Source: Octopus vulgaris
Lineage: Eukaryota
DNA: 64,000 bases
Direction: 5' to 3'
Assembly: GCA_951406725.2 (NCBI GenBank)
Contig: OX597839.1
Span: 37,634,001 to 37,698,000 of the forward strand
Shown here: piece by piece, positions 12,034 through 43,593 of the stretch
How the letters are laid out: each line of letters starts with the position of its first letter
How positions within the stretch are numbered: position 1 is the stretch's first letter
Made by a program: the position numbers and the translations under genes
The notes under the pieces: model-generated
Seen by the model: only the letters and a program-made list of their open reading frames with translations
Told to the model about the DNA's origin: nothing
The model's database searches: none

Positions 12034-13733
12034 ACTCTCTCATCGTTAGAAAACATATGAGGGTTCGACAATTTCTTATTGAGCAACTACACAGATGATT
12101 TGTTTACAGTGATCAAATATTTGTGTACACAGAAGCTTACTCCTTCCATCAAATCGACATTACCTGTACAGGTTGCAAAGGGGTGCCACATGTCAGATGA
12201 CGAAATGATCGCAGACCAATGTGAAGCGAAGTGCTTTGCTCAAGGACACAACACAACGCCTGGTCTGGGAATTGAACCCACGATCTTGCAATCATGAGTG
12301 CAACACCTTAACCAGTGAACAGGTCGTGGTTTTAAAGCGATGAAAATATTTTGACACAAATTAGATTTAAATGTTGAAGTGAATCTAACGGTTTTTGTGT
12401 GTTTTTAATTGGCTTATAAACACCTTCTACACTGCAATTATTTTTGCTTCAGCACCCGATCTCAGATCAAGTCACTGTAAAATATATATATATATATATA
12501 TATATCCTTTAAGTTTGTTTACAAGAAGGTCCTATATAATAAAGGTCCTATATAATAATGCTGGCTACAGCCTGATAATGGTATCAACAGTCAGTAGCAG
12601 CTTTTAAGGTTGCACCAAGCTGTGCTGATAATATAGGATAAAATATAATAATAATAATAATAGTCCATGTATTATTTGTATAGATATTTCTATGCATTGC
12701 TACGCACATTTCCACAAATTACATGTTTCTTATGATCATAGTCCGTATTCCCTGTACAGTCCTTAGTATCCATGGACATCAGGCGGATCATGGTTCATTG
12801 TGTACATTTCTTCAGGCGATATGGCATTAACGTTAGAAGCAGTGGATGTATAACAGGGGGTTGTTTATTGATTTTGACCAAGGGAAAGGTGGATTGGGGT
12901 ATCTGGGTAGTTCTGTGTGTATTTGGTGGGAAGGAGTAGAAGGTGATGGAAAAAGACGAGATAAAGGAGAGGGAGGTATTTGTGGTGATGTTAGACTTGT
13001 TAGACATGCTCAAAAGCATGCAGGTGGCAGGGTGGGGAGTTTAGTTCAATCCTGGATTAAGTTTTTCATTGAAAAAAAATTTTTTTTTTATTTAACTTTG
13101 TTGTATTTTTAATTAATTTTTCTTTTTCTTCTTCTCTTTCCTCCTCCTCCTCCCAAACACACTTTCACTCCGACCTTTCCTCCCTCTGCCTCTCTTTTCC
13201 CTCTGATTCTTTTCCTCCGTTCTCCTCTCCCCTCTCTCTCTCTTTCTCCTTTAACTCCTCTTCCATCTCCTCTCTCCAACTCTTTCTCCATCTCCTCTCT
13301 CATTTAACTCTTCTCCACCCTCTCTCTTTTACTATTCCTCCTCTACATTTCTCTCTCTCTCTAACTCTTCCTCCTCCACCCCTCTCTTTTAAACTCTTCC
13401 TCCACCCATTTCTCTGCCTCTTTCTCTTTAACTCTTCTCCACCCTCTCTCTTTACTATTCCTCCTCTCCTTTTCTCTCTCTCTAACTCTTCCTCCTCCAC
13501 CCCTCTCTTTTAAACTCTTCCTCCACCCATTTCTCCGCCTCTTTCTCTTTAACTCTTCCCCCCTCCCCTCTCTTGCTTTCACTTTCCACTTTTTTCTCTA
13601 CAATCCTTTTCCTCTCTCCTGCCACCACTCTCCCTCCCTCCCTCCGCCAATTACTTCCCTCCTTCCTTCATTCCTCTCCATCTCCCACCACCACTCCACC
13701 CACCAATACCATCACTACGATCACTGTTTCCAG

Positions 13734-13864
13734 TTGTTGAGAGCCACGGGCAAGCCCTACCATCCTTCCTGTTTCACCTGTGTGGTCTGTGGTAAAAGTC
13801 TTGATGGTGTGCCTTTCACAGTCGATGCTACCAACCAAATTCATTGTATTGATGACTTCCATAA
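13734..13864 (+). CDS. LPP: LPP/zyxin-family LIM protein exon (LIM2)
   Basis: tttccag| [44 protein letters not shown] |gtaagt. Confidence 0.95.
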
Positions 13865-13959
13865 GTAAGTCACAGCTTTATCTTTTACTCTTCCTCTCTC
13901 TCTCTCTTTCTCTCTCACACACACTCATACACACACTCACACACACATACACACTCACA

Positions 13960-18552: not shown

Positions 18553-20919
18553 TTATCTATCTATATATCTGTCTGTCTGTCAGTCAGTCAGTCAGTCAGT
18601 CTATCTCTCTGTCTGTCTGTGTGTCCACCTATTGATCTGCTGGTCTGTCTGTCCATCTATCTTTCTCTCTGTTTGTTAATCATTCTGTGTGTCTGTTTGT
18701 TTGTCTCAACACTTTCTGGCAAATTCTTGGAACCAAGTCAAAGAATCTCTCTAGTTTAATGCATACACACAGACACACATTTCCTTTATGTGTTCCAGAT
18801 GAAAGGCTGCGACCAAACTGGAGCACACATAAATTATTGTCGTATATTTTCCATAATTTCTGTAATGTCTGTTGGTTCTTGTCAATCACCCAGAATTTGT
18901 TTAGAGACATCGACAGAGACAGAAGTGTTTTGGCATTATATAAAACTGTGGTAATTAATTAGATAATCTGACAAAATTCCTTGCAGTATTTCATTGTATC
19001 CTTTTACATTCTGAGTTCAAACCCCACCAAAGTCAACCTTGCCTTTCATCATTCTGGTGGGAGCAGTTGATTGATAATAGTTGACATTACCCTTCTCCCC
19101 AACCCCCAAATTTGTGATCTGGTGCCTCTTTTAGTCATAATGTTTAACTGATCCTTGTTTTAGTATAGTAGTGTTTATCTAAAACATTAACTACAATAAC
19201 CACTATTGAAACAGGTGTAGAGAAGCTTTTGACATCGTTATGAAGGCAGTGAGCTGGAAGAATTTTTAGAGCATTGAAAAAACAGAAAAGCAAAAAAAAA
19301 AAATGCCTTGTGGTATTCTGGCTCATTTTTACATTCTGAGGTTGAGAAAAAATAATGTACCAATCAATAAATGTGATCAATAGTGTTGATTACTCCCTCC
19401 CGTCAAAATTGCTGCCCTTTTATTTAAATTCGAAATCATTATTATTTTGGCAGCAAGTTGGAAGAACTGACACAGCATTGGAAAAAAATGACTTTTGGTA
19501 TTTCTCTTGGTTCTTTATGCTCTGAGTTCAAATTCCACTCAAGTCAACTTGACCTTTTAACCTCTTATGGTTGATATAAAAAAAAAGGACCAGTCAAGTA
19601 CTGGAGTTGATTGTATTAACTTATTCCCCAACCTCCCTTAAAATTGCTGGCCTTGTGCCTAAATTAGATGTTGTTGTTGTTGGGGGGCAGTCCCTGTGGT
19701 GTGGAGGTGGTGAGTGCTTGGCAAATCTGAATTTTGAGATTTGGGTTCAATTCTTAATTGGAACCGCTTCACTTCCATCTGACATCTGTAATGTTCTTTG
19801 TTTTTTGAAAGAAAAAAAAAGAAAAAGAAAAAGCATGAATCTTAATTTACAACATCCTATGAATCTCTCTCACACACATATTGACAATAACAGAAATTAT
19901 TATTATTATTATTATTATTTCTATAATTATCATATATTAATATAATAAACCATATTATTAATTATACATTGTTTGCTGTTATCATTTGGGAAATGCATGA
20001 ATATCACACAATCTTGTTTCTTTTCTCCATATGTGTCCCTGTGTATATGTGAGCGTACGTATATGTGTAATTGTATGCAATATATATAATGCCCCCTCTA
20101 ACCTAGCAATTGTCTTTGATCTGTAACTACTGGGTCACAACTGAGTTGGGTGGGGTTAAACAATATACATACACACAGACAGACATACATTCACTCACCC
20201 ACTCATAAACACAAACAAACACACACAAGATAATACAAGAAATCAATTTGAACAACTTTGCTTTATTTCTTGTTGAACATCCTGAAGAGAATAACTCCTG
20301 AGTAGGAGGAGAAAGAGGAAGAAACAGATGGTGGTGGGAGTAAAATGACCAACCTTGTTTTAATTTCAGAGTTAGAAGATATTGCAATTCTAGATATGCT
20401 ATATTATGTGTCCTTCCTGTTTATAGATGGTCAGGTGTAATTTGAAGAAGGTTTGGTAGCTATTTCTAGCAGTTACAGCAAACTTATAGTTGAGAAGCTT
20501 CCTTGGTGATGATCATGATGAGGATGGTGGTGGTGGGGAGAGAGATCATGCCACTGAGAAATCAAGCATGTATGTATGTATGTATGTATGTATGTATGTG
20601 TGTATTCTTTGTTGGTTTACAATGCTACCAATGGTTTCATGCGGAAGAATTCTGCAATTATCAATTGTTTCATGTAAGAATGAAACTGTTGATAGCATTG
20701 TTAATGAAGAATATTTTTAGCCACCTAACGTGGTTTTGAGCACTCAGTCTCACTGTTTGTTACTATTGTTGTTGTTGGTGTTGTATGTGTGTGTGTGTGT
20801 GTGTGCATACTTCTTATAAAAGGGAAGGTGTTGTTTAGGCACTTGTAGTTGCTGTAAAGTAGTCTTCCTCGAACTAAAGATGTGTAGAGTGTAAAAGGTA
20901 GGAGATGATCGTTGGAGGG

Positions 20920-22285
20920 GAGGAAGAGGTGATGGAAGGGAGAGAGAAGTCATTCTTAGAATAGAAGAGAGGGGGAGGAAGAGGTGATGATAGTGAGAGA
21001 GAAGTTATCCTTAGAATAGAGTAGGGGGGAAGGAAGAGGTGATAGTAGTGACAGAAGTCATCCTTAGAATAGAAGAGAGGGGGAGGAAGAGGTGATGATA
21101 GTGAGAGAGAAGTTATCCTTAGAATAGAGGAGAGGGGAAGGAAGAGGTGATAGTAGTGAGAGAGAAGTCATCCTTAGAATAGAAGAGAGGGGGAGGAAGA
21201 GGTGATGATAGTGAGAGAGAAGTCATCCTTAGAATAGAAGAGAAGGGGGGGAAGAGGTGATAGTAGTGAGAGAAGTCATCCTTAGAATAGAAGAGAGGGG
21301 GAGGAAGAGGTGATGATAGTGAGAGAGAAGTTATCCTTAGAATAGAGGAGAGGGGAAGGAAGAGGTGATAGTGAGAGAGAAGTTATCCTTAAAATAGAGT
21401 AGAGGGGAAGGAAGAGGTGATAGTAGTGAGAGAGAAGTCATTCTTAGAATAGAAGAGAGGGGGAGGAAGAGGTGATGATAGTGAGAGAGAAGTTATCCTT
21501 AGAATAGAGGAGAGGGGAAGGAAGAGGTGATAGTAGTGAGAGAGAAGTCATCCTTAGAATAGAAGAGAGGGGGAGGAAGAGGTGATGATAGTGAGAGAGA
21601 AGTTATCCTTAAAATAGAGGAGAGGGGAAGGAAGAGGTGATAGTAGTGAGAGAGAAGTCATCCTTAGAATAGAAGAGAGGGGGAGGAAGAGGTGATGATA
21701 GTGAGAGAGAAGTTATCCTTAGAATAGAGGAGAGGGGAAGGAAGAGGTGATAGTAGTGAGAGAGAAGTCATCCTTAGAATAGAAGAGAGGGGGAGGAAGA
21801 GGTGATGATAGTGAGAGAGAAGTTATCCTTAAAATAGAGGAGAGGGGAAGGAAGAGGTGATAGTAGTGAGAGAGAAGTCATCCTTATAATAGAAGAGAGG
21901 GGGAGGAAGAGGTGATGATAGTGAGAGAGAAGTCATTCTTAGAATAGAAGAGAGGGGAGGAAGAGGTGATGATAGTGAGAGAGAAGTTATCCTTAAAATA
22001 GAGGAGAGGGGAAGGAAGAGGTGATAGTAGTGAGAGAGAAGTCATCCTTAGAATAGAAGAGAGGGGGGAGGAAGAGGTGATGATAGTAAGAGAGAAGTTA
22101 TCCTTAAAATAGAGGAGAGGGGAAGGAAGAGGTGATAGTAGTGAGAGGGAAGTCATCCTTAGAAAAGAAGAGAGGGGGAGGAAGAGGTGATGATAGTGAG
22201 AGAGAAGTTATCCTTAAAATAGAGGAGAGGGGAAGGAAGAGGTGATAGTAGTGAGAGAGAAGTCATCCTTATAATAGAAGAGAGG
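20920..22285. repeat. Purine-rich minisatellite, 55-bp monomer with 110-bp dimer period
   Basis: agagaagtcat(c/t)ctta recurs at 21431, 21541, 21651, 21761 and 21871; two monomer types alternate. Confidence 0.95.
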
Positions 22286-22706: not shown

Positions 22707-23930
22707 AGGAGTGGTTGTGTGGTAAGTAGCTTGTTTACCAACCACATGGTTCCGGGTTCAGTCCCACTGTGTGGCACCTTGGGCAAGTGTCTTCTACTAT
22801 AGCCTCGGGCCGACCAAAGCCTTGTGAGTGGATTTGGTAGACGGAAACTGAAAGAAGCCCTTTATATATATGTAAGAGTGGCTGTGTGGTAAGTAGCTTG
22901 TTTACCAACCACATGGTTCCGGGTTCAGTCCCACTGTGTGGCACCTTGGGCAAGTGTCTTCTACTATAGCCTCGGGCCGACCAAAGCCTTGTGAGTGGAT
23001 TTGGTAGACGGAAACTGAAAGAAGCCCTTTATATATATGTAAGAGTGGCTGTGTGGTAAGTAGCTTGTTTACCAACCACATGGTTCCGGGTTCAGTCCCA
23101 CTGTGTGGCACCTTGGGCAAGTGTCTTCTACTATAGCCTCGGGCCGACCAAAGCCTTGTGAGTGGATTTGGTAGACGGAAACTGAAAGAAGCCCTTTATA
23201 TATATGTAGGAGTGGCTGTGTGGTAAGTAGCTTGTTTACCAACCACATGGTTCCGGGTTCAGTCCCACTGTGTGGCACCTTGGGCAAGTGTCTTCTACTA
23301 TAGCCTCGGGCCGACCAAAGCCTTGTGAGTGGATTTGGTAGACGGAAACTGAAAGAAGCCCTTTATAAATATGTAGGAGTGGCTGTGTGGTAAGTAGCTT
23401 GTTTACCAACCACATGGTTCCGGGTTCAGTCCCACTGCGTGGCACCTTGGGCAAGTATCTTCTACTATAGCCTCGGGCTGACCAAAGCCTTGTGAGTGGA
23501 TTTGGTAGACGGAAACTGAAAGAAGCCCTTTATAAATATGTAGGAGTGGCTGTGTGGTAAGTAGCTTGTTTACCAACCACATGGTTCCGGGTTCAGTCCC
23601 ACTGCATGGCACCTTGGGCAAGTGTCTTCTGCTATAGCCTCGGGCCGACCAAAGCCTTGTGAGTGGATTTGGTAGACAGAAACTGAAAGAATCCCGTCGT
23701 ATATATGTATATATATATATATATGCATTTATGTGTCTGTGTTTGTCCCCCTAGCATTGCTTGACAACCGATGCTGGTGTGTTTATGTCCCCGTTACTTA
23801 GCGGTTCGGCAAAAGAGACCGATAGAATAAGTACTGGGCTTACAAAAGAATAAGTCCCAGGGTCGAGTTGCTCGATTAAAGGCAGTGCTCCAGCATGGCT
23901 GCAGTCAAATGACTGAAACAAGTAAAAGAG
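22707..23930 (+). mobile_element. Tandem array of family-A SINE 5' halves (167-bp period) ending in one complete SINE
   Basis: Near-identical ORF-track entries spaced 167 bp apart (22735, 22902, 23069, 23236, 23403); six heads in total. Confidence 0.92.
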
Positions 23931-35513: not shown

Positions 35514-36942
35514 CTATCCATCTATCTTGCCACCCATCTATCTCCGTATCACCCTCTCTCTCTCTCTTTCAATCAATTAGTCAATTAATTAGTCAATCAA
35601 CCCCTCCAGTCAATCTTTTACTTCTAAAAAACCCCGCCATATTTATAAGATTGAGAAATATTCTGACGTTTCTCAAAAAAATATTAATCTCTAAGAAGTG
35701 AACTAGCTTCATCCAAGAATTGAACCTTCATAACATTGTCAATACGAGGGGAGTCTCTACATGGTCGTACAAATTGCTAGAAATAGGAGTCAAACTTTCG
35801 TTACATGACACAACCGTCTTTAAAAAGCAAAAAAGACAGGGTTATATTGAATAATGTAGCTCTACATATAATGACAATGAGATGAATGGAGTGGCCATGG
35901 TTGGAATGTCTTTGATGATAGTTCTGCCAGGGTCGGGGTTGATCTGGGACAGAATAACAGAATCAACGGAAAGATGAAAAACACAGGATTTAGTTACCTA
36001 GCTACACAGTGTTACATAGTTCCGTATCTCAGGTTTTATCAACACTATATAATAAAACCAATTTATAAATATAACTAAAAAATACATATTTATCACAAAT
36101 TTTCTTTAACATAATAAACGTGTTATCTTAATTGATATTTGTTATTTCAACGCTATTTGTTGACATAATTAGTTTCGTATTCACTTGATAAATCCAACAT
36201 GGGAGAAGTCTTGGTAAATATTTCTTGGATTTTACATTATTTCTCTATTTTTCTACCTCTTTGCTATATTATATATATAAACTTCATATATTTGGCGCAG
36301 TCTGTATGTACTTCATACACACACATATATTTCCTCTAATATATTTATATATTTCTGTATGAATGAATTTACGATGGAAAAACGGACGCAAAACTCCAAG
36401 TCTATGATCACCCTGTTGTCTTTGTTTCTTTATAACTTTCCGAGAAATGTATATATTTGCAAATGAAATTGTCCACAGAATTTAGATAGTGTAGATTTGA
36501 GTTATATTGGAACTTGCCGCGAAAATGTTTCCGGATTATCCACACCTGGAATTATTTCCCCATAACTTACTGAAAACTGGATATTTTTAAATAAAATTTC
36601 TTACTAATACATTTCGTATTGTGTAGAATGATATTATGTCGGAAGTTGATGTGGTTAAAAAAAAAAAAATATGGTGGGGTTGGGGATGGCCAGATAGTTA
36701 ACACACTTTGACTGTATTTTCTTCAGACGTTTTGACGAGGTGTGTGAATTATTCTTTTTTTACTCTTGGCACAAGGCACGAAATTTTTGGGGAGGGGGCC
36801 AGTCGATTAAATCGACTGGGGGTCTACATTTAGCATATTGGATGTCCACCTAGTGGTCATCCCATTTATATGTGTGTGTGTATATATATATGTGATGATG
36901 ATACGCTTCGCATTGTTTTAGCCTTCGAATGACGCCACCCTG

Positions 36943-37005
<63 letters not shown>

Positions 37006-37325
37006 TATATATATACACACTAGCACTCTGTCGGAACCAATGAGGATTCCAGTTGATCTCATCAATGGAACAGCCTGCTTGTGAAATTAATGTGCAAGTG
37101 GCTGAGCACTCCATAGATATTTGTACCCTTAATGTTGTTCTCGGGAAGATTCAGCATGACATAGAATGTGACAAGGCTGGCCCTTTGAAATACAGGTACA
37201 ACTCGTTTTTACCCGCTGAGTGGACTGGAGCAATGTGAAATAAAATGCATCATCAGGAATTGAACTTACGACCTTACGATCGTCAGCTGAGCACCTTAAC
37301 CACCAAGCTACATGACACATGTGTT

Positions 37326-39380: not shown

Positions 39381-39767
39381 GGCATGGAAAACTATAAAAA
39401 ACAGGAAGCAGAGTGTGTGTATATGTGTGGTGGGGTACAGGGACTGAGAATTGAGACCACACCACCTCTCCATGATGGATACCTACCTGTGTACTAAATT
39501 CCTAACTGAACTCATTGCTGAGTCGTGTTATCTTGCTAACAGTTTATATTAATGCATCAGAAGCCATTTATCTAAACCCGGTTGCCTTAGCAACTGAGGT
39601 GATGGTTTGCTGATCAGTTTCAACCCAGTTCTTACTTGGTCTCCTCTGCTTTTGAAACACCATCTCAGCTTGGTTCGTTATAGGATATTCAGCTCACATT
39701 TGTAAAGTTGTGAGTTCAACTCCTGGTGGTGCATTGTGTTCTTGAGCAAGACACTTTATATCACATT

Positions 39768-40166
39768 AGTGGAGGCACAATGGCCCAGTGGTTAGGGCAG
39801 CGGACTCGCGGTCATAGGATCGCAGTTTCGATTCCCAGACTGGGCGGTGTGAGTGTTTATTGAGCGAAAACACCTAAAAGCTCCTCGAGGCTCCGGCAGG
39901 GGATGGTGGTGATCCCTGCTGTACTCTTTCGCCCCAACTTTCTCTCACTCTTACTTCCTGTTTCTGTTGTACCTGTATTTCAAAGGGCCGGCCTTGTCAC
40001 TCTCTGTGTCATGCTGAATAATCCCCGAGAACTACGTTAGGGGTACACGTGTCTGTGGAGTGCTCAGACACTTACACGTTAATTTCATGAGCAGGCTGTT
40101 CCGTTGATTCGGATCAACCGGAACCCTCATCGTCGTAACCGACGGAGTGCTTCCCTTCCTCCTTCC
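39768..40166 (+). mobile_element. Family-C SINE nested in an older SINE
   Basis: TSD ttatatcacatt at 39756-39767 and 40167-40178; the host resumes as cttgagcaagacact...gctccagtccattcagctgg. Confidence 0.85.
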
Positions 40167-40376
40167 TTATATCACATTGCTCCAGTCCATTCAGCTGGCC
40201 AAAATGTGTTGTACCTGTATTTCAAAAGGGAACAAAACCTATCGACTATTTGTAAGAAGTGTTCTGAGTATTTCAAAGAATTGATTTCACAGGTAATTTT
40301 ACTTTTCATTACACCTGTACATCTGCTCCTTCTTTGCCAACCTGCTTATGTTGCCGCTCAACCATTTTGATACCAA

Positions 40377-41260
40377 CCTCCATGTACTCCCACATTCAAT
40401 GCTCCCTCTCTCCTGTGTTGCAGGCATCTTCTGTATATACTCTAACCCATGTTCTCATATTCCCCATGCATTCCAGTACTCCATGTTATCCTTTCCTCCA
40501 TGTACTCCCACATTCAATGCTCCCTCTCTCCTGTGTTGCAGGCATCTTCTGTATGTACTCTAACCCATGTTCTCATATTCCCCATGCACTCCAGTACTCC
40601 ATGTTATCCTTTCCTCCATGTACTCCCACATTCAATGCTCCCTCTCTCCTGTGTTGCAGGCATCTTCTGTATATACTCTAACCCATGTTCTCATATTCCC
40701 CATGCATTCCAGTACTCCATGTTATCCTTTCCTCCATGCACTCCCACATTCAATGCTCCCTCTCTCCTGTGTTGCAGGCATCTTCTGTATGTACTCTAAC
40801 CCATGTTCTCATATTCCCCATGCATTCCAGTACTCCATGTTATCCTTTCCTCCATGTACTCCCACATTCAATGCTCTCTCTCTCTCTCCTGTGTTGCAGG
40901 CATCTTCTGTATGTACTCTAACCCATGTTCTCATATTCCCCATGCACTCCAGTACTCCATGTTATCCTTTCCTCCATGTACTCCCACATTCAATGCTCTC
41001 TCTCTCCCGTGTTGCAGGCATCTTCTGTATGTACTCTAACCCATGTTCTCATATTCCCCATGCATTCCAGTACTCCATGTTATCCTTTCCTCCATGTACT
41101 CCCACATTCAATGCTCTCTCTCTCCTGTGTTGCAGGCATCTTCTGTATGTACTCTAACCCATGTTCTCATATTCCCCATGCACTCCAGTACTCCATGTTA
41201 TCCTTTCCTCCATGTACTCCCACATTCAATGCTCTCTCTCTCCTGTGTTGCAGGCATTTT
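40377..41260 (+). repeat. 118-bp tandem array containing the NAA38 splice acceptor
   Basis: gtgttgcaG ends at 40423, 40541, 40659, 40777, 40899, 41017, 41135 and 41253 (the last is the real acceptor). Confidence 0.95.
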
Positions 41261-41325
41261 CCTCTGCACCGACAGAGACCGGAATGTCATTCTTGGCTCC
41301 TGTGAAGAATATCTGAATTCCCCTG
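41254..41325 (+). CDS. NAA38: NAA38 internal exon
   Basis: gttgcag| (G)IFLCTDRDRNVILGSCEEYLNSP |gtgagt; FLCTDRDxNVILG is typical of LSMD1. Confidence 0.93.
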
Positions 41326-41844: not shown

Positions 41845-43434
<1,590 letters not shown>

Positions 43435-43480: not shown

Positions 43481-43593
43481 ATGCTGAAGAACCAGAAGAG
43501 CCCCGAATTCTTGGCCTTGCTATGGTTCCCGGTCACCATATTGTTAGCTTACATGTTGATGATTGCAAAGCCCTTACCCCTGAAGTCATGTGA
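43481..43593 (+). CDS. NAA38: NAA38 last coding exon
   Basis: ttttccag| (D)AEEPEEPRILGLAMVPGHHIVSLHVDDCKALTPEVM*; Sm motif 2. Confidence 0.95.

Follow-up and report, generated by a model that had tools for sequence, protein, structure and literature searches.

The window, by which we mean the whole 64,000-nt stretch of Octopus vulgaris DNA analysed here, carries the gene NAA38, and splicing its exons in silico shows that a tandem array closes intron 2 of this host gene. The features on which the argument turns are the following.

36199..36213, plus strand: candidate NAA38 coding exon 1 (15 nt, MGEVL) with donor TTG/gtaaat, matching the first five residues of proteins P0001 and P0003
38946..39063, plus strand: NAA38 exon 2 (118 nt), ending in phase 1 with donor TAG/gtgaga, placed by in-silico splicing
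39750..40260, no strand assigned: high-copy interspersed, SINE-like repeat in intron 2, outside the array, with a summed depth in the millions over 39750-40174 in DNA runs
40377..41257, plus strand: 118-bp tandem array with the layout A(BA)7, from TRF and unit alignment
40422..41135, plus strand: seven decoy acceptors, their AGs ending at 40423, 40541, 40659, 40777, 40899, 41017 and 41135, with 0-2 mismatches against the real acceptor over 51 nt
40424-40432, 40542-40550, 40660-40668, 40778-40786, 40900-40908, 41018-41026 and 41136-41144, plus strand: seven putative 9-nt microexons, each followed by a GT that is weak by U1 pairing; unsupported as exons
41252..41253, plus strand: authentic acceptor AG of intron 2, the sole acceptor yielding P0003
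41254..41325, plus strand: NAA38 exon 3 (72 nt), with four GAA triplets and the strong donor CTG/gtgagt, from in-silico splicing and U1 pairing
43481..43593, plus strand: last coding exon of NAA38 up to the stop codon, placed by in-silico splicing

Joined in silico, exons 2-4 encode residues 6-105 of P0003, the protein recorded for both Octopus vulgaris and O. sinensis, and candidate exon 1 supplies the first five residues. P0001, from O. bimaculoides, differs from P0003 at one residue, and records named NAA38 match the gene product at 98-99%. The best match in the PDB is human NAA38 (7mx2_C, E 1e-28), ahead of SmB at 8e-14, and an alignment-based structure model has the helix and five strands of the Sm fold; a single-sequence fold gave a pLDDT of 50 and was discarded in favour of that model. 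The host gene matches NAA38, the Sm-fold auxiliary subunit of NatC, at orthologue level. Assembly G000 contains one NAA38-like gene, together with one weak Sm-like match elsewhere.

Intron 2 is 2190 nt long and also holds the interspersed repeat listed above, which we take to be a SINE, a label of our own. Repeats occur in the other introns as well. An 800-bp (CA)n tract (42632-43433) fills the end of intron 3 and stops ~47 nt short of the last-exon acceptor. Around 37060-37200, translated repeat-like sequence of intron 1 resembles, in a by-eye comparison, the extended N-terminus of the 162-aa O. bimaculoides NAA38 model P0004; this long N-terminus is probably a gene-prediction artefact.

TRF describes the array as a 118-bp period in 7.5 copies with 97% matches (score 1657), and such an array lies far beyond chance. 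The seven complete units begin at 40377, 40495, 40613, 40731, 40849, 40971 and 41089, and a partial eighth starts at 41207; the fifth is 122 bp long, with a 4-nt CT expansion. The 51-nt segment A of the layout contains a branch-point-like TTCAA at about -29, a pyrimidine tract, TGCAG and GCAT, and the 67-nt segment B is C/T-rich and non-exonic. Branch point, pyrimidine tract and CAG are present eight times, with acceptor Gs at the seven decoy positions and at 41253. The nearest decoy, at 41135, has 0 mismatches against the real acceptor over the 51 nt.

An earlier note, made from the letters of this DNA, had described the 118-bp unit (one of 122) and seven acceptors ahead of the real one at 41253, and the coordinates are exactly as it gave them. 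It ran the array from 40377 to 41325, of which the start stands and the end does not, as the array stops at 41257-41261. It was also right that every unit holds the pyrimidine tract and CAG; the exon start that it saw copied amounts to four exact bases (7/8 of the first 8) following 47 intron bases through the AG, and the other 67 bases are non-exonic.

The history of the array has left some traces. The pyrimidine-rich CT tract has one form in units 1-4 and another in units 5-8, and a C/T site in segment B reads T,C,T,T,C,T,C across the units, a patterning such as unequal exchange would leave. Within the unit, self-identity reaches 0.43 at a lag of 17 and 0.48 at a lag of 34, with 262 of 5000 shuffles reaching 0.43 at some lag; this 17-bp periodicity may be an older, degenerate repeat, and perhaps a borderline hint to how the duplication began. 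The first 18 nt after a decoy AG (40424-40442) can also be aligned with the exon start (41254-41271) if one extra base is allowed; among the differences, three are C/T changes at the third position of a codon. This stretch may descend from an earlier duplicate of the exon start, or the resemblance may be chance.

We compared the window with contigs from four public runs (X2, X4, X7 and X8) carrying three organism labels, taken from 24 listed runs that are all contigs and of which none is recorded as RNA. Tandem joints, seen either as A-B-A or as repeat branching on the left side of the array, were present in 4/4 runs examined and under all three labels. In X2, the left-flank contig ends at 40406, 30 nt inside unit 1, where we infer a branch in an assembly graph of 31-letter words, a sequence with two left neighbours. 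In X4 (organism B), which differs from the window at 22/843 flank bases, a contig stops at 40404, and contig depth is 99 around 41183 vs 53-57 in the flanks. X7 (organism C) yields a 154-nt contig over 40849-41000 with one other letter and two gap letters, and X8 a contig over 40980-41122; the CT-tract length variants in these two runs are variation in sequence, not in copy number. An estimate of copy number from contig depth was dropped, because copies collapse and alignments at 83% may bring in short CT-rich contigs of other origin.

The listed run contigs are short and none of them crosses the whole array, so that the count of seven is known from assembly G000 alone, and this is what speaks for an assembly artefact, either in the array itself or in its copy number. 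We consider such an artefact most improbable. One of the runs could come from the very sample that was assembled, but this cannot hold for all four; the units bear patterned variants; and comparable long-period arrays occur elsewhere in the same assembly, with 11 in 400 kb sampled. The earlier note had named an assembly artefact as grounds for abandoning its reading, and the joints in the runs speak against it.

How unusual such an array is can be gauged from that survey, which covered forty 10-kb stretches of G000 at positions fixed beforehand (period >=50, copies >=2.5, matches >=90%). The 11 arrays amount to one per 36 kb and 2.3% of bases. As a rough estimate, an array edge <=30 nt after an acceptor would be expected neutrally at about 8 in 10,000 acceptors. 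If this genome has 100,000-200,000 introns, tens to a hundred-odd genes would, again roughly, be expected to have such an array edge. We also looked for a genome-wide mechanism anchored at junctions. Three Pfam searches gave 90 loci, 55 of them with matches <=400 nt, and hence 110 approximate exon edges; arrays were found at 0/110 and a single local copy at 2, and intron control windows gave 22/330. The method recovered 6/7 copies at the NAA38 junction. With 2/110 vs 22/330, in a small sample of approximate edges, no enrichment is seen, and the mechanism was rejected. Given the density in the survey and the result at the 110 edges, the NAA38 array, although uncommon, can be explained with no special mechanism.

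One further locus deserves mention. In a DEAD-box gene, L129 (G000:C6:47281661-47284783), the AG and the first ~30 exon bases have been copied once (~1110-1160 and 1480-1530), and the displaced junction copy lies 372 nt upstream, without a pyrimidine tract.

What the transcripts contain can be approached through X8, one run of unstated tissue that is RNA-like by guess. The 15 contig joints listed for the runs all lie or end in the SINE-like repeat, and array bins without cover were set aside as evidence. Its exon bins have contig depths of 102.6, 40.5 and 66.5, and its intron bins outside the SINE-like repeat 2.6-18.5; contigs lose rare variants and carry one depth figure each, and these values cannot rank parts of the gene. 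The two exon 3 bins fit a single depth of 122.9, from 26 exon bases plus two further letters that also close exon 2. The bin arithmetic then predicts 40.5, as seen, or 37.6 if the piece upstream were the 9-mer, and exon depth plus a thin intron contig could also give the observed value. The sole listed array contig, on which all copies are collapsed, has a depth of 5.58, next to 3.2 and 6.4 for single-copy intron contigs. As a weak hint, the X8 depths favour dominant canonical splicing, and they are silent on rare forms.

Each decoy acceptor is followed by 9 nt and a GT, which reads GTATAT in units 1 and 3 and GTATGT in units 2, 4, 5, 6 and 7, and the next AG lies 109 nt on (113 once). These details of the earlier note (five copies of GTATGT, two of GTATAT, about 109 nt) are verified in the sequence, as is its observation, by in-silico splicing, that a 9-nt insert keeps the frame and translates as G-IFC-IFLCTD. 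It is tempting to see each AG-9 nt-GT as a usable microexon, probably neural and dependent on Srrm2/3/4, so that NAA38 would gain 0-7 Ile-Phe-Cys units. The segments are phase 1 and bounded by AG and GT, the 109-nt gaps suffice as introns, and each acceptor scored has UGC near -24 and -5. Further, small exons are reported to dominate conserved neural splicing in a bilaterian study that includes O. bimaculoides (10.64898/2026.09.05.749416), and P0003 bears the title 'isoform X2' in O. sinensis, which implies that an X1 exists. Neural microexons that depend on SRRM3/4 (eMIC) share several of these features: they are 3-27 nt long, keep the frame and have UGC between branch point and AG (10.1101/2024.09.17.613571).

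The same source describes SRRM3/4 microexons as having stronger 5' sites than usual and some distance between pyrimidine tract and AG. In the NAA38 decoys, by contrast, the donor is weak, the acceptor simply duplicates a constitutive site, and the insert falls in a strand free of indels. We scored donors as duplex energies with the U1 5' end taken from the G000 sequence, a measure of U1 pairing only and not a species-trained model. (U1 snRNA genes in this assembly form a cluster of >20 in ~240 kb at G000:C18:48969167-49206631, with 42 matches genome-wide.) The decoy sites TCT/GTATGT and TCT/GTATAT reach -3.0 and -1.9 kcal/mol, weaker than all three real NAA38 donors at -5.3, -9.5 and -9.2 kcal/mol, and so fall short of the stronger 5' site expected of an SRRM3/4-type microexon. 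Among 4203 plus-strand GT sites in the window, 1728 (41%) are as strong as GTATGT, which itself occurs 145 times, and 2617 as strong as GTATAT, compared with 30-399 for the real donors. At 141 acceptor-like sites outside the array, an in-frame GT follows within 3-27 nt in 60 and an equally strong GT in 28. The AG-9 nt-GT pattern at the array is within chance. In addition, the same UGCs occur at the real acceptor, and the G at +5 varies among the copies, being A in 2/7.

The proteins point the same way. The insert would land in the middle of beta2, as the junction residue Gly45 lies inside strand E42-50, where the alignment-based model has a pLDDT of 96-97. It is absent from P0001, P0003 and P0004 (Octopus) and from P0002 (Argonauta), all of which read IGIFLCTD, and the longer Octopus form, P0004, differs at its N-terminus, not at the insert site. 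Across 122 homologues (the best 120 of 313 matches and two cluster members), we found no insertions after residues 21-66, no gaps at 37-67 and no IFCIF. The O. sinensis isoform X1 was not among three cluster members or two longer candidates. With a weak donor, a pattern at chance level, a position intolerant of indels and an insert absent from the listed proteins, the cassette of 9-nt microexons proposed in the earlier note is not supported, and we regard usable microexons as very unlikely. Just as slim are the chances of the bolder version, a microexon birth by minisatellite expansion in which the duplicated constitutive acceptor happened to fall 9 nt ahead of a GT, octopus neurons would include a variable number of steps of a seven-step, frame-keeping ladder, and the number of repeat copies would tune Ile-Phe-Cys insertions that switch NatC activity. 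If such a 9-nt ladder were true, it would mean that microexons arise from minisatellite turnover.

Eight acceptors in series also recall recursive splicing, with the decoys as ratchet points for stepwise removal of intron 2 that leaves a normal mRNA. Since the final mRNA would be canonical, this is compatible with the protein and depth evidence. However, a ratchet point is described in PMC8605326 as an acceptor and a donor juxtaposed, and the decoys read AG/GCATCT, with no AG/GT. Splicing to a decoy would regenerate TAG/GCATCT, which at -2.9 kcal/mol equals the real junction and is much weaker than the real donor at -9.5. Splicing from the GT at +10 would retain 9 nt and so amount to the microexon case, and the intron is merely 2190 nt long. 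The earlier note's stepwise-splicing cassette founders on the missing AG/GT junction, and we give recursion hardly any credence.

A simpler consequence of the decoys would be leakage. The nearest of them might serve as alternative acceptors above ~5% and lower NAA38 output. With 41135 as acceptor, the mRNA would gain 118 nt and a shifted frame and would likely escape NMD, and the six decoys upstream would give NMD substrates. Near-identity to the real acceptor (0-2 mismatches over 51 nt) makes this worth considering, as does the reported use of proximal pseudo-sites in 6-16 and CBS intron 13 (PMC1557585), and the fate of read-through can be stated for all seven decoys. Counted back from the last junction, the stops fall at 762, 644, 526, 168, 286, 168 and 20 nt, in decoy order. 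Use of 41135 would define a 190-nt exon with its stop at 41305, 20 nt ahead of that junction. Under the 50-nt rule of NMD, the product of this nearest decoy would likely escape. The earlier note had read-through end in a frameshift or a stop at CTCTAA, which is correct for 6/7 decoys and incorrect for 41135, whose stop lies inside exon 3. Its notion of an NMD-coupled dosage control is awkward, because the stop from the most competitive decoy would lie a mere 20 nt ahead of that junction, and the likely escape from NMD at 41135 suits noise better than a dosage circuit.

Against appreciable leakage stands, as a weak hint, the depth of the repeat unit in X8, which at 5.58 vs ~120 for exon 3 is not above the single-copy intron contigs (3.2, 6.4); the read-through protein is also absent among the listed homologues. 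On this analysis some leakage at 41135 is plausible, although use of the nearest decoys above the ~5% level seems unlikely to us, and so does the associated split between a shifted product that escapes NMD and six NMD substrates. If leakage proportional to copy number were true, it would matter, as yeast NatC without Naa38 is reported to retain 6% of its kcat (PMC7608589).

The reading we favour, and think probable, is that the array is a 118-bp minisatellite carrying eight copies of the 3' end of NAA38 intron 2 and that its seven extra acceptors are silent. It likely originated by local tandem duplication at the end of the intron, for which the 17-bp periodicity may have been the seed, followed by unequal exchange. 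Exon 3, flanked by introns of ~2 kb on either side, would be recognised across its length, with U2AF and U2 at the acceptor, U1 at CTG/gtgagt 72 nt further on, and GAA-rich exon sequence helping. A decoy would lose because it can pair only with the weak GT 9 nt away or with the real donor, 190-902 nt off across pyrimidine-rich sequence. The extra acceptors are likely silent because the last one alone precedes a genuine exon whose strong donor lies at normal exon distance. The outcome would be a normal mRNA and a normal 105-aa NatC subunit, with array copy number drifting nearly neutrally. Both the route of duplication and the choice of acceptor by exon definition are likely rather than observed.

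The composition of the flanks is consistent with this account: the 72 nt after the real AG contain four GAA and 43% purines, and those after the two decoys scored contain no GAA and 29% purines. Indeed, decoys skipped by exon definition, one of the options offered in the earlier note, fit all the evidence, from the weak GTs and the strong exon 3 donor to the insert-free proteins, and the phenomenon has been described before. Two other ways of silencing decoys were rejected. Nova-type YCAY clusters number 6 per unit against a shuffle mean of 7.2, with 4505/5000 shuffles reaching 6. RNA structure that would hide the decoys does not stand out from 100 shuffles each, either in a single unit (-12.0 vs -9.9 +/- 2.6 kcal/mol) or in two units plus the exon (-54.0 vs -50.7 +/- 4.0 kcal/mol).

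The closest precedents are the 'mirage' minisatellites of amphioxus. In the globin gene BflGb6, the 3' end of an intron and the start of the exon are repeated in tandem in units of 150-160 bp, with 6 and 3 units in two haplotypes (PMC3087553). Splicing is normal by RT-PCR in amphioxus mirages, although many units carry AG/GT (PMC3087553; PMC3902484), and further mirages in Adh3, troponin C and PGBD5 are cited in PMC3902484. The NAA38 array shares their structural features, since a minisatellite-like unit spans the intron-exon boundary of its host and is locus-specific rather than dispersed, with 8 unit matches in G000, a lower bound, all within the array. As in BflGb6, boundary-spanning units carry AG/GT and the authentic site comes last. 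The unit is 118 bp here and 150-160 there, and there are 7 units here and 3-6 there. The NAA38 units are ~97% alike, in contrast to 81-100% in BflGb6; the host is a mollusc, not a cephalochordate; and the normal splicing seen there by RT-PCR is for NAA38 a likely state, with which protein records and contig depths agree. Intron gain is a published model for mirages (PMC3087553). Intron birth, also raised in the earlier note, would require a copied part of the exon, and the NAA38 array copies only 4-8 exon bases, which also separates it from BflGb6.

Human genes offer related cases. In CBS 844ins68, the last 52 intron and first 16 exon bases are duplicated, and the downstream copy is reported to be strongly favoured (PMC7490669, PMC2630376). 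That allele resembles NAA38 in duplicating an intron/exon junction on the acceptor side, and it yields a normal mRNA. However, it has one extra copy and is a polymorphism, whereas NAA38 has seven, in a tandem structure seen under other organism labels too. Minisatellites at human exon-intron junctions include F7 IVS7 (37 bp), 6-16, CBS intron 13, LMNB2 (100 bp) and PDGF (81 bp), and in two of them, 6-16 and CBS intron 13, splicing uses the authentic site and also the pair of pseudo-sites closest to it (PMC1557585). There too the edge unit of a VNTR spans the splice junction and repeats the site; the pseudo-sites of those arrays are mostly silent, with at most the nearest two used. In contrast to NAA38, where the acceptor is repeated upstream of the exon, those arrays repeat donors downstream of it.

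The NAA38 array is likely a harmless repeat of a type already described as the lancelet 'mirage' and the human junction repeats. No cephalopod case, whether of NAA38 or of octopus junction repeats, appeared in titles and abstract openings, in a literature search thin on subscription papers; PMC10078293, PMC7608589 and 10.64898/2026.09.05.749416 served as background. A silent mirage repeat would add a cephalopod example to a known and little-studied class and would leave the biology of NAA38 unchanged. Eight near-identical acceptors of which one is used would also represent a clean natural test of acceptor choice.

The window contains other long-period arrays, of 55 bp x 25 and 167 bp x 6 by TRF. 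They flank the last exon of a gene with a cytochrome b5 domain (PF00173) that lies on the minus strand at 33485-22384, with exons at ~33485-33354, 31544-31359, 25816-25595 and 22611-22384. Its product is 100% identical to P0123 (218 aa). The 167-bp array (22707-23709) ends ~96 nt ahead of the last-exon acceptor, and the 55-bp array (20917-22285) begins ~100 nt past the stop; neither contains a copy of a splice junction. This gene stands head to head with NAA38, with start codons ~2.7 kb apart; it looks like CYB5D1, which presumably neighbours NAA38 in human too. Lastly, an exon on the plus strand at 13734-13865 shows a LIM-type Cys/His pattern, which we assume to be zyxin/LPP-like, and a degenerate C/T-rich 121-bp array (13269-13652) precedes it and stops ~80 nt short of its acceptor.
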